Assembly (NCBI GenBank): GCA_963772655.1
Contig: CAVYYE010000003.1
Span: 2,737,341 to 2,801,340, forward strand
DNA: 64,000 nucleotides
From: an uncultured delta proteobacterium
GTDB taxonomy: Bacteria; Myxococcota_A; Polyangia; Haliangiales; Haliangiaceae
Direction: 5' to 3'
Part shown: positions 37,264-43,032 of the stretch, one piece after another
Layout of the letters: the number at the start of each line of letters is the position of its first letter
Numbering within the stretch: position 1 is the stretch's first letter
The notes under the pieces: model-generated
The model's database searches: none
The model's input: the letters and a program-made list of their open reading frames with translations, nothing else
Told to the model about the DNA's origin: nothing
Position numbers and translations under genes: made by a program

Positions 37264-39225
37264 TCAGGCGGAGCGCTGGTACGCGATCTTGCCCATTCCT
37301 TCGTACTCGGCGCGGGCCGCGCGGCGGAGATGCGCGTTGGTGATGGGCGTTCCTTCGTGGGCTGCCAGATAGGCGGCTCGCAACACCGCGTTCTTGATGT
37401 AGCCGCCGCTCATCGCATAGTCCGTGGCCAGTTGGCCGAGCTCGAGGTCTTCGGCACGCGCCGCCGCTGCCGGCAGCATCGTCGACCAAAGGAGCTCGCG
37501 GTGCTGCACGTCGGGCATCGGCACGCGGACATGAAAGGCGAGGCGACGCTGAAATGCCTTGTCGATCGCGGTCTCGTGGTTGGTCGTCAGGATGGAGATT
37601 CCATCGAACGACTCCATGCGTTGTAGAAGGTAATTGACCTCCAGGTTGGCGTAGCGATCGTTACTGCTCTTCACCTCCGTGCGCTTGCCGAACAAGGAGT
37701 CGGCCTCGTCGAACAGCAGGATCGCGTGCCCCGACTCGGCCGCCTCGAACAGCGCTGCGAGCTGCTTCTCGGTTTCACCGATGAACTTCGAGACCACCCT
37801 CGACAGGTCGACCTGGTAGAGGTCGAGTCCGAGCTCCCGCGCGACGAGTCCCGCGATCATCGTCTTGCCGGTACCCGGCGGTCCAGAGAACAACGCCGAC
37901 AGACCGAGCCCCTTTCCGACCTTCGCCGCGAACCCCCAGTCGGTCAGGACCTGCCTGCGATGTTGGACCCGGGCGACCAGCTCGATCAGCAGGTCGAACT
38001 GATCGACCGGAAGAACGAGATCGTCCCACGTCTGGCGTGTCTCGACGCGGCGCGCCAGGCCGGACAGGCGACGTTCGAGCTGACCGCGGAGCGCGGTGTG
38101 CACGTGATCGACGGTGACGCCATCCGAAGTGTGCGCGAGTGCCGACGCGGCGGCCGCCGTGCGCGCGAGCAGTCCGGGCGAGATCGTGTAGCGAGCAGCG
38201 CAGGTCGTCGCGACGTCCTCGGTCGGAGCCGGAAGCGCTCTCGCCCACATCGCCGCGCGCGACGTCTCATCGGGCAACGCGACCGGCACGGTGACGAGGG
38301 TGCGATCGATGGCCCACGTGCATGCCTCTCGAGATGTCGCGAACGCCGGGCCGTCGTGGCGGTTCAGAAGATGGCGCTCCACGAGCTGGGAGTGCTCGGC
38401 CAGGGCATCGATCTCGACCAGCAGTGGCCAGGCGCCATGCAACCGACATTCGCGGGCAATCGCTCGTAGTTGCCGCGCCAGTCGGTCCACGTCCTTGTCC
38501 AACGCCGTGGTCCGCACCGTGATGGTCGCTCGCCCGGTCCCGGAGATCGCGTGCCGCAACATTGTCGAGCGCCCGCTCCCTTCGACGCCCGTGGCGACGA
38601 CCAACTGTCCGGTTCGTTCGATCGCATGCTCGAGCGTTTCGGGCGTCGTGACCTCGAGGCCGACGAGCTCACGCCGAGCTTCGACCGAGCTCGTGAGCGT
38701 CGCGATCTCCGCCAGCTCGCGATCCAACCCCAGTCGGCCGCAGGCGAGCTCGACGACGCGGTCACTCGCCCGTACGGAGCGCCGATACAGCGGAACCTTG
38801 CGCTCGAACGTGGTCTCGACCAATCCGTGGAGCGCGAGCCGATCCACGATCTCGAGGCCACGCTCGTCACCGGGCGGCACGAGTCGATCGAGGATCTGTA
38901 CGTTGAGCTCGTGCATGCCGGGAAACGCGAGCATGCGCGCGGCCCCTGCCAAGGCGGGTTCGAGCTCGATACAGGCGAGCATCCACAGCACGTCCATCTC
39001 CGCGGCCGATAGCCTCAACCGTGACTGCAGGATCCGCATCGGGGTCTCACCGGTCACCGCAGCGACCCTGTCGAGGAACACGGAGGCCGGTGTCACCTCC
39101 AGGAGATCGCCCTCCAGCCAGCCCGCTTCTCGGCCCTCGTTGACCAGCTCGCCGAGACGAGCCAGCGTCCACCCCTTGCGCGCCGCCAGCTCGGAAGCGG
39201 AGCTGGACGTGATCGTGTCGGACAT
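37264..39225 (-). CDS. AAA+ ATPase with a degenerate N-terminal AAA-like module and a canonical C-terminal AAA domain.
   Basis: Walker A is GPPGTGKT. Walker B is LLFDEADSL. The sensor/arginine-finger region is ILTTNHETAIDKAFQRR. A degenerate N-terminal P-loop (GVEGSGRST) is present. The start is placed at ATG 39225. Confidence 0.75.
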   Translation of the reverse strand: MSDTITSSSASELAARKGWTLARLGELVNEGREAGWLEGDLLEVTPASVFLDRVAAVTGETPMRILQSRLRLSAAEMDVLWMLACIELEPALAGAARMLAFPGMHELNVQILDRLVPPGDERGLEIVDRLALHGLVETTFERKVPLYRRSVRASDRVVELACGRLGLDRELAEIATLTSSVEARRELVGLEVTTPETLEHAIERTGQLVVATGVEGSGRSTMLRHAISGTGRATITVRTTALDKDVDRLARQLRAIARECRLHGAWPLLVEIDALAEHSQLVERHLLNRHDGPAFATSREACTWAIDRTLVTVPVALPDETSRAAMWARALPAPTEDVATTCAARYTISPGLLARTAAAASALAHTSDGVTVDHVHTALRGQLERRLSGLARRVETRQTWDDLVLPVDQFDLLIELVARVQHRRQVLTDWGFAAKVGKGLGLSALFSGPPGTGKTMIAGLVARELGLDLYQVDLSRVVSKFIGETEKQLAALFEAAESGHAILLFDEADSLFGKRTEVKSSNDRYANLEVNYLLQRMESFDGISILTTNHETAIDKAFQRRLAFHVRVPMPDVQHRELLWSTMLPAAAARAEDLELGQLATDYAMSGGYIKNAVLRAAYLAAHEGTPITNAHLRRAARAEYEGMGKIAYQRSA

Positions 39226-39278
39226 GCGGGCTCGTATCGACTTCGCGTCCGTGGGTTGCTCGCTTTCTTGCGGAGCGA

Positions 39279-41546: not shown

Positions 41547-41559
41547 CGCGTTCGTGCTC

Positions 41560-43032
41560 CTATCCGAGCTTCTTGATGCGAAGACGCGGCGCATCGACGT
41601 CGTGGATGATGGTCGTCCCGCTCACGCTCTTGTTGACGCTGGTCTTCTTCGACTGATCCGTCTTGTTCGAAGAGGACACCTCGGTTTCGAGGCTCGTCGC
41701 GATCTCCGTCTCCACGTCGTGCTGGACCTCCTTGGAGTACGTCTCGGAAAGCTCCTTGGCGACCGATTTCAGCGTGTTGATCTTCTTGCCTGTCTTGCCG
41801 GAGAGCGACGTGCCGGTCGTGTCGCTCCCTCCATCACCACTCGAGCTCTCGCGTTTGACCGAGCCCCGTCCCGTGATCGTGTCCCACAGCGAGCCGGTGA
41901 GCTCGAGGGCCGCGCTGACGATGGGAATGTGCTTCGCGAGACCTTTTCCCTTCGAGAGCACCCACGAACCTGCCTTGGTCACGACGTGCTTGAGCTTGTC
42001 GAACAGACCCGTTTCCCCACTCTTGTCCTTGGCGTCGTCCGGCTTGTCGCCCTTCGCGGGATCGATCGCGACCGTCCACTTCACCGACTGTTCGTAGGTT
42101 GTCTGGTGCTGGCCCGTTCGAGAGAACAGTTGCTCCTCGATGTTTTCGAACACCTTCTGGACTCCCGTCGTCAGGCTCTTTTTGAAGGAGTCGACGATCT
42201 TCTCTTTCGTTGCCTGCCTCTTCTTGGCCGCGACGTTGGTCGTCGTCTTGACTCCCGACTGGTCGCTCGAGGCCGAGCCGTCTTCCGAGCTTTCGCTTCG
42301 GGTCCAGTGCACCTCGCGTTGATGATCAGCGCCAGGATCGATCATCACGGAGAACTTCGAGTCCGAGTCCGCCGCGTAGTCGGCGCCAGCGACCGAGAAC
42401 CGCCGGGTTTTGTTGTCTCCTTCTGGCCGAATCTGGACCGTGATCACCGTCCCCGGATACAGGTCGGCGAGCTGAGCCTGTACATCCGCAGCGAGGGCGT
42501 CGTAGTCGCCGCGATCCTCTAGCTGCGCCTGCACCAGTTGACCTGCAAATTTGCTCGCCTCCTTCTGGTCTCCCTGTTTCCCCCCCTTCATGTTGACCAG
42601 GACCTGAAACTTGTTCTTGGTGGGGTATCCCACCGTGGCACTAACCCGGCCCGGCCCCTTCTGTAGGTCTGCACTGCCCAGCAGCACCGCACCGTCTTTC
42701 GCCATGTTGCCGCCCGTGAGGATCGTCGACGACGAGCCGTTCGGGACGATCTTGAGCTCGTCCACGACCAGTTGATCCTCGGGTGTACGAGCCGGGCTCC
42801 GTGAGCGCTTGCCTGCCACCGCCTCGTACTCGACGTACCACTGCGTGTGAACGCGGTCCGCGGCCGGCGTTGCAGGTGCAGCACTCGCTGGCGCCGCCCC
42901 GGTGGACGACCACAGACGATCGACGTGGGGATGATCGTGCTCAGCGTCCGCTTCGGACTTCTGATCGTGATCGTCGACCTTCGGCGTCTTCGACGGATCG
43001 TGGGTTTTGGGCTGGGTCAATTCGAGCGTCAT
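41560..43032 (-). CDS. Hypothetical 491-aa protein. It has no signal peptide, no Cys, a Ser/Thr/Lys-rich C-terminal half and GC visibly below the background.
   Basis: The ORF is clean from ATG 43032 (MTLELTQPKTHD...). It sits head-to-tail, 13 bp upstream of the Sel1 paralogues. No domain was recognised. Confidence 0.55.
   Translation of the reverse strand: MTLELTQPKTHDPSKTPKVDDHDQKSEADAEHDHPHVDRLWSSTGAAPASAAPATPAADRVHTQWYVEYEAVAGKRSRSPARTPEDQLVVDELKIVPNGSSSTILTGGNMAKDGAVLLGSADLQKGPGRVSATVGYPTKNKFQVLVNMKGGKQGDQKEASKFAGQLVQAQLEDRGDYDALAADVQAQLADLYPGTVITVQIRPEGDNKTRRFSVAGADYAADSDSKFSVMIDPGADHQREVHWTRSESSEDGSASSDQSGVKTTTNVAAKKRQATKEKIVDSFKKSLTTGVQKVFENIEEQLFSRTGQHQTTYEQSVKWTVAIDPAKGDKPDDAKDKSGETGLFDKLKHVVTKAGSWVLSKGKGLAKHIPIVSAALELTGSLWDTITGRGSVKRESSSGDGGSDTTGTSLSGKTGKKINTLKSVAKELSETYSKEVQHDVETEIATSLETEVSSSNKTDQSKKTSVNKSVSGTTIIHDVDAPRLRIKKLG

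Follow-up and report, generated by a model that had tools for sequence, protein, structure and literature searches.

The locus

We describe a five-gene locus in a stretch of 64,000 nucleotides (hereafter the window; positions 2,737,341–2,801,340 of contig CAVYYE010000003.1, GenBank assembly GCA_963772655.1) from an uncultured delta proteobacterium of the Haliangiaceae. Its genes encode a putative effector, which we call the cargo, two lipoproteins, an AAA+ ATPase of a type associated with contractile injection systems (CIS), and a small conserved protein, S. An earlier note, made from the sequence alone, had reported the first four as minus-strand genes in series, and the gene calls of the source genome agree exactly. 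The cargo gene (41560..43032, minus strand) is found both as an open reading frame (ORF) and among the source gene calls; it encodes 490 aa, one fewer than the 491 previously given. It is followed by the genes for two Cys-rich Sel1-like lipoproteins: A (40521..41546, minus strand; 341 aa), a putative cognate immunity protein, and its paralogue B (39279..40346, minus strand; 355 aa), a putative second or orphan immunity protein. The ATPase gene (37264..39225, minus strand; 653 aa) comes last and is supported by Pfam, by its motifs and by the source gene call. The gaps between these four genes are 13, 174 and 53 bp; the outer two are as first reported, and the middle one had been put at ~175 bp.

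Two features were absent from that first account. One is the gene for S (43219..43674, plus strand; 151 aa), which is also present in the source’s calls. Between it and the cargo gene lies a divergent intergenic region of 186 bp (43033..43218), presumed to hold the promoters. The other is a frameshifted remnant of the 3′ end of a cargo gene (40347..40425, minus strand), which was recognized from DNA alignment and repeat families and lies directly 5′ of lipoprotein B. A promoter and terminator scan found no sigma-70-like site in 43033–43218, a result that is uninformative for this organism.

The locus differs from its surroundings in base composition. GC content is 61.5% in the cargo gene, which had been described as lower in GC than its neighborhood, and 61–62% in the lipoprotein genes, compared with 67.7% for the whole window. 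GC at third codon positions (GC3) is 0.71–0.80 in the cargo and both lipoprotein genes, 0.82 in the ATPase gene and 0.90–0.91 in the flanking genes. A search for island borders found no flanking att-like repeats and no tRNA nearby.

The ATPase

The ATPase had been described as a tandem-AAA protein of ~650 aa with a degenerate first module, and its motifs bear this out: the first AAA module (D1) has a deviant Walker A motif and the second (D2) a canonical one. The D1 Walker A motif reads GVEGSGRST (residues 213–221), with Arg in place of Lys, a change common to the window ATPase and a Serratia PVC-like ATPase. The Walker-B-like stretch of D1, PLLVEIDAL, still has its acidic residues, but these are not conserved across the clade. 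In D2, Walker A (GPPGTGKTM, 448–456) and Walker B (LLFDEADSL, 503–511) are both canonical, and the pore loop KFIGETEK (480–487), sensor 1 and the Arg fingers are also present. Pfam gives an AAA match of 106 bits at the C-terminus and a weak P-loop match in the middle of the protein. Sequence matches in the PDB cover D2 only and are to p97/Cdc48-type proteins. Near the N-terminus, Pfam also shows a winged-helix domain (WHD, PF22977), which is weak in this protein (22.4 bits against a cut-off of 27). WHD is detectable in 16 of the 36 members of the window ATPase’s clade, and a WHD plus AAA architecture is present in all nine CIS-operon ATPases tested.

The resemblance to unfoldases of contractile injection loci, suggested from size and architecture in the earlier note, extends to sequence. 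The closest annotated relatives of the ATPase are encoded in operons for extracellular contractile injection systems (eCIS). When annotated plasmids were searched with tblastn, the best matches lay within such operons and covered residues ~130–650 at 35–38% identity. On the Rhodococcus plasmid pWB1, the gene for the ATPase relative is followed by Pvc16, sheath, tube, LysM, gpD, gpV, PAAR, gp25 and baseplate genes; on the Serratia plasmid pELP1.10, it lies between a tape-measure gene and Pvc16. Some CIS-linked ATPases can be aligned to the window ATPase from residue 21–60 on. Public data contain more than 100 full-length homologues (47–71% identity).

Among characterized members of this group, Pvc15 has the Walker A Lys of D1 replaced by Arg and has lost the acidic pair of the D1 Walker B (PMC11495950). 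Pvc15 and Alg15 mediate ATP-dependent loading of cargo into the tube via disordered N-terminal leaders (PMC11495950; bioRxiv 10.64898/2026.05.27.728243). Judged by sequence and architecture, the window ATPase is in all probability of the Afp15/Pvc15/Alg15 type.

The putative cargo

The 490-aa protein contains no Cys and has no signal peptide, and its C-terminal half is rich in Ser and Thr (25% together) and Lys (13%), all as first described. It has no match in Pfam, NCBIfam, PADLOC or PHROGs, and by Pfam neither the protein itself nor the adjacent genes contain DUF4157 (eCIS_core). When 1.84 billion cluster representatives were searched exhaustively with HMMER, 25 proteins came up, counting the query; 16 of these, the query again among them, are full length. 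Word-indexed homologue searches, with the protein and then with the family alignment, returned the query alone. This null result for the Ser/Thr/Lys-rich cargo is misleading: a syntenic orthologue of 47% identity exists in a metagenome-assembled genome at NCBI. A scan of metagenomes with the cargo alignment yielded a single locus of 2.8 kb, a duplicate of locus L006 (below).

Four of the 24 relatives (P0126, P0139, P0142 and P0145) have an N-terminal eCIS_core/DUF4157 domain with the motif HEAAHVVQQ. DUF4157 is a marker of eCIS-associated toxins (PMC8213781).

We modeled the cargo with AlphaFold2 (AF2) and the family alignment. The mean predicted local distance difference test score (pLDDT) was 54, and the model is confident only in part. 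Residues 1–57 score below 50, which corresponds to a disordered leader of about 58 residues; 86% of the first 50 residues are disorder-prone. Residues 59–238 form a confident beta-rich domain, and the Ser/Thr/Lys-rich residues 240–490 are modeled at low confidence as helices and a hairpin. No fold match to the model was found in the PDB or BFVD. The family is rare, and the searches gave no housekeeping homologue. The 490-aa family and an unrelated cargo at another locus (L003, below) have a common leader pattern within about 45 residues, MT-hydrophobic-E/Q ... D-x-I/L-W. This common pattern is suggestive but lacks statistical significance.

Lipoproteins and a cargo gene remnant

The two lipoproteins are 64% identical and, as reported, are paralogues built of Cys-pair Sel1-like repeats. 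Pfam Sel1 detects a single repeat in each, below its cut-off of 30.7 bits (29.8 bits in A and 24.8 in B). A profile of seven homologues matches the Helicobacter proteins HcpC (1ouv, E = 2.6e-14) and HcpB (1klx, E = 8.8e-8), and 16 Cys columns are invariant across the family. Each protein carries a lipoprotein-type signal peptide ending in Cys (...FVAMSAC in A). PADLOC and PHROGs returned nothing for either protein.

The earlier note had also pointed to a near-identical block of ~150 bp common to the two genes. The block exists and measures 136 nt with at most 3 mismatches (41297–41432 in A, 40082–40217 in B). It covers the first Sel1 repeat, and outside it the paralogues are 72% identical, which suggests either gene conversion or strong constraint on the first repeat.

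Directly upstream of lipoprotein B, the ~79 nt at 40347–40425 align with a 1-nt indel to the final ~75 nt of the cargo gene and its ribosome-binding site. Repeat families D5 and D7 confirm this stub. It probably arose either by duplication of a unit consisting of a cargo 3′ end and a lipoprotein gene, or by deletion of a second cargo gene. With either origin, B would be an extra immunity-like gene of the kind seen in polymorphic toxin loci. Sel1-like immunity proteins in tandem are known for PldB, a type VI secretion system (T6SS) effector (PMC13133936).

Conservation across genomes

The earlier note proposed to check whether these families occur together in other genomes, and they do. The cargo gene has a Sel1 lipoprotein gene directly downstream in all six distinct loci (the window, L002, L006/L089, L090, L091/L092 and L093). 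Among the five loci with downstream sequence, the ATPase gene comes next in four: the window, L002 (71% identity to the window ATPase), L090 (56%) and L091 (65%). The exception is L006, where the cargo bears DUF4157 and the ATPase gene is not next. In L006 (1–13319), the DUF4157-fused cargo relative and its Sel1 lipoprotein follow an ORF encoding 2694 aa or more, a gene for a Cupin_8 protein and an ORF of 266 aa. In L002, a ParE toxin/antitoxin pair (5910–6457) lies immediately downstream of the orthologous ATPase gene, which fits variable, island-like DNA.

Other members of the window ATPase’s sub-clade have an unrelated large protein and one or more unrelated small lipoproteins in the same slot. 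The large protein is 427 aa in L003 (with two tandem paralogous lipoproteins of 160 and 152 aa), 676 aa in L005 (lipoprotein of 196 aa), 505 aa in L094 (134 aa), 400 aa in L095 (175 aa) and 561 aa in L011 (343 aa), where the pair lies downstream of the ATPase gene. The slot between the conserved S and ATPase genes thus houses at least six families of large proteins that are unrelated to one another, and each comes with a lipoprotein family of its own. The large proteins are all poor in Cys, lack a signal peptide and have polar, disorder-prone N-termini.

S was discovered by tblastx of the regions upstream of cargo genes, which revealed a conserved gene on the opposite strand. Within the sub-clade, each locus has a homologue of 36–47% identity beside the cargo gene, irrespective of the family to which the cargo belongs (L002, L003/4, L005, L010, L011, L090, L091/92, L093, L094 and L095). 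The conserved core is therefore S and the ATPase, and the variable insert is the cargo with its lipoprotein or lipoproteins. Besides the source genome, the pair of S and ATPase is found in GCA_028287135.1, GCA_964203225.1, GCA_013812895.1 and metagenome-assembled genomes of Kofleriaceae. In most loci S and the cargo gene are divergent; they run in the same direction in L094 and L010 and converge in L011. No S gene was found in the CIS-operon loci sampled, in other orphan loci or in L006. The protein has no match in Pfam, NCBIfam or the PDB, and a single-sequence AF2 model, of low confidence, is all-helical with a disordered N-terminus. S may serve as an adaptor, chaperone or regulator.

The genes that flank the cassette differ from locus to locus. 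The cassette probably moves as a unit, since its GC3 is below that of its neighbors and the flanks are different in every locus.

Absence of CIS genes around the ATPase

The earlier note stated that no structural genes of secretion or contractile injection systems are present here. This is true of the 64-kb window, where neither Pfam analysis of the neighboring genes nor our own hidden Markov models (HMMs) found a CIS or T6SS structural gene, and it extends to the 7–10 kb flanks of related loci. For this comparison, we fetched 80 ATPase loci from species-representative genomes, among the matches listed, and scanned them with HMMs for Pvc16, sheath, tube, VgrG/gpD, gp25, baseplate, PAAR and LysM proteins, which were built iteratively from two annotated operons as seeds. 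Most non-myxobacterial loci have CIS structural genes beside the ATPase gene. The HMMs found none in L002, L003, L005, L009–L016, L018, L019, L044, L056 or L069.

A rough neighbor-joining tree places the window ATPase in a clade that contains only such orphans, all from Myxococcota or Kofleriaceae. Complete CIS loci do occur in Myxococcota (e.g. L023 and L062), so a particle encoded at a distance is plausible. We found no description of orphan cassettes with a Pvc15-like ATPase in the literature searched.

Myxococcota also have a second group of orphan CIS-type ATPases, which lack S and have giant ORFs after them on the same strand (L013, 1556–11502, at least 3315 aa; L015, 11260–15009, 1249 aa; L019, 11440–16590, at least 1717 aa). 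These loci perhaps represent a different cargo arrangement.

Interpretation

We favor, with somewhat more confidence than doubt, the reading that the locus is a mobile, polymorphic effector–immunity cassette, a ‘cargo island’ of a contractile-injection-type toxin system with its own CIS-type loader. The earlier note had compared the genes to a toxin–immunity or effector module combined with an unfoldase of the contractile-injection type, and the comparative evidence largely supports this: the eCIS-operon relatives of the ATPase, DUF4157 in relatives of the cargo, co-occurrence across genomes and the polymorphic slot. The duplicated lipoprotein gene with a toxin 3′ stub looks like a signature of immunity, which would make the lipoproteins putative immunity proteins. 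From these comparisons we infer toxicity, immunity, loading by the ATPase, a role for S in this process and a CIS encoded elsewhere.

By analogy with Pvc15 and Alg15, a hexamer of the ATPase would recognize the disordered leader of the cargo, perhaps helped by S. It would then unfold or thread the effector, which would be loaded into a delivery particle whose genes lie in another part of the genome. The effector would be cytoplasmic in the producing cell, having no Sec signal, and its target would be in the cell envelope, since the lipoprotein would protect in the periplasm. There, the lipoprotein would neutralize effector arriving from sibling cells.

Several observations weigh against this reading. 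No CIS structural gene lies within the window or within 7–10 kb of any ATPase gene of the all-orphan clade, which leaves the delivery machine hypothetical. In the window, the cargo lacks DUF4157, a known toxin domain and a recognizable fold. The likeness between the leaders of the two cargo families extends over a short stretch and does not reach statistical significance in BLAST, and the lipoboxes are atypical (MSAC and TFAC). Most characterized eCIS act on eukaryotes and carry no immunity genes (PMC8213781). Finally, none of the canonical CIS loci sampled has a counterpart of S, a hint that the system may work differently.

The most serious alternative is that S and the AAA core have been exapted for a CIS-independent route, in which the leader-tagged toxin is unfolded by the ATPase and passed to another translocon, or is released by lysis or in vesicles, with no contractile particle taking part. 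The window’s clade consists of orphans throughout, its partner S is private to it and not found in CIS-operon loci, and its WHD is strongly diverged (22 bits against 58–189 bits in CIS-operon ATPases). In L006, the DUF4157-tagged cargo occurs without S or the ATPase, as if two leaders meant two routes. However, no candidate translocon is linked to the cassette in any locus, the motifs and pore loop of the ATPase match those of CIS loaders, and the complete CIS loci L023 and L062 make a distal particle plausible in this phylum. On balance, we regard exaptation as rather unlikely. A particle-independent route is nonetheless non-negligible because of the private S, the diverged N domain and the constant orphan status. 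In its broader form, S and the CIS-derived ATPase clade would be the core of an undescribed, particle-free toxin-handling system of Myxococcota, serving polymorphic envelope-targeting toxins by another route of export or activation; we give this a minor but real share of our belief.

Other alternatives concern the partners of the ATPase or its function. The lipoproteins could be release or lysis factors, or envelope partners, instead of immunity proteins. In colicin operons, a lipoprotein releases a signal-less cytoplasmic toxin; the cargo here is likewise without a Sec signal, and every cassette has a lipoprotein gene directly downstream of it. However, each change of cargo family brings a change of lipoprotein family, and the two are conserved together, so specific binding fits better than generic release. 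The lipoproteins are also repeat or globular proteins of 134–355 aa, not release peptides of ~30 aa; the toxin stub beside the extra paralogue is in keeping with an orphan immunity gene, and immunity proteins of the Sel1-like type are documented (PMC13133936). Because the lipoprotein family tracks the cargo family and the orphan paralogue carries a toxin stub, we consider colicin-style release improbable. An anti-phage or abortive-infection system, with the ATPase as an infection sensor that activates a variable effector, would account for a conserved NTPase with variable effectors, a common layout in defense, and for the matches of the ATPase to the PADLOC IetA and NCBIfam IteA models (E = 1e-30 to 1e-32). 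Those matches are confined to the generic D2 AAA module (residues ~470–660), and the IteA score is 104 bits against a curated cut-off of 510. There is no IetS-like protease partner at the locus, periplasmic lipoproteins that co-vary with the effector are foreign to known defense systems, and some cargo relatives have an eCIS cargo domain. We rejected the defense reading as very improbable, given that PADLOC and PHROGs gave only generic AAA matches for the ATPase, that the IetA/IteA matches lie far below the cut-off and that no protease is present. Finally, both Sel1-like repeat proteins and AAA+ ATPases are widespread, generic proteins, and the genes could be ordinary proteostasis or envelope genes that are neighbors by chance. 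This we find scarcely credible: the cargo family is a rare one without any homologue of housekeeping function, and the five-gene synteny, kept across at least 10 loci despite unrelated flanks, rules chance out.

As a cargo island, the locus would combine an eCIS cargo, its immunity protein and its loader in a form detached from the particle genes, and it adds two unannotated families of no known fold, the 490-aa putative effector and its 151-aa partner. Of all the steps in CIS action, the choice and loading of cargo is the least understood, and this holds back attempts to engineer CIS for protein delivery. In the present case, a whole clade of loader-type ATPases lies apart from the particle genes, and each member is associated with a different, apparently leader-tagged cargo and with an extra partner. 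Such naturally matched combinations of ATPase, adaptor, leader and cargo form a compact set from which rules of recognition might be derived. The putative cognate periplasmic lipoproteins point to an antibacterial, kin-discriminating use in myxobacteria, which is uncommon among described eCIS. The locus is thus relevant to research on contractile injection systems and on myxobacterial kin conflict. If the cassette does work without a particle, it would represent a new secretion-related use of this ATPase family.

Other features of the window

Elsewhere in the window, an 851-aa protein resembling the major vault protein is encoded at 30701–33256 (plus strand), with Pfam matches to the major-vault-protein shoulder (E = 1.4e-24) and a vault repeat. 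Genes for an FHA-domain protein, a DUF1302-like protein, a LolA-like protein and an MMPL transporter are clustered at 51044–59116, adjoined by a gene (58957–63576) for a Ser/Thr kinase of 1539 aa that contains an AAA_16 STAND module. ARAGORN calls a tRNA-Thr(CGT) at 10013–10109 (minus strand) that is unusually long (97 nt, anticodon at position 39); it may contain an intron or an insert, or be a false call.

Comparison with known systems

The ATPases Afp15, Pvc15 and Alg15 (Cis15) resemble the window ATPase in their winged-helix N domain, deviant D1 (Lys to Arg), canonical D2 and KYIGETEK-type pore loop. Over D1 and D2, it is 32–38% identical to CIS-operon ATPases, some of which align from residue ~21–60, and it likewise adjoins a putative cargo with a leader. 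The window ATPase differs in its location outside a CIS operon, with no Pvc16, sheath, tube or baseplate gene nearby, and in belonging to a separate, all-orphan clade of Myxococcota. Its WHD is strongly diverged, its cargo gene lies upstream and not downstream, and it has the extra partner S.

Like eCIS toxins (Geller et al. 2021; e.g. Cgo1/Cgo2, Pnf and Pdp1), the cargo has a disordered leader, here about 58 residues long, in front of a folded body. This body has relatives fused behind DUF4157, and the window cargo adjoins a loader-type ATPase. In contrast to those toxins, it has no DUF4157, its leader is of another type (MTLELTQ...DRLW) and no known toxin family or fold gives a match to its body. 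A lipoprotein accompanies it, whereas an immunity gene is lacking for most of the eCIS toxins described, and it is not at the 3′ end of a CIS operon, none being present in the window.

The closest parallel for the lipoproteins is PldB (Tle5b) with PA5086–PA5088, where tandem paralogous Sel1-like proteins exported to the periplasm are also encoded beside a signal-less effector. PldB is delivered by a contractile machine, the T6SS; in the window, the delivery route is putative. The delivery system and the effector are different in the two cases, and the sequence relationship of the Sel1-like proteins is limited to the type of repeat. The window proteins are lipoproteins with paired Cys, like the Helicobacter Hcp proteins.

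Polymorphic toxin loci, such as the T6SS arrays of Vibrio cholerae and the orphan modules of contact-dependent inhibition (CDI) and Rhs systems, likewise have a second immunity paralogue preceded by the degraded 3′ end of a toxin gene. The slot is also polymorphic, as it is between strains in those systems. In place of a VgrG, Rhs or CdiA gene, the constant scaffold here is the ATPase together with the small protein S.

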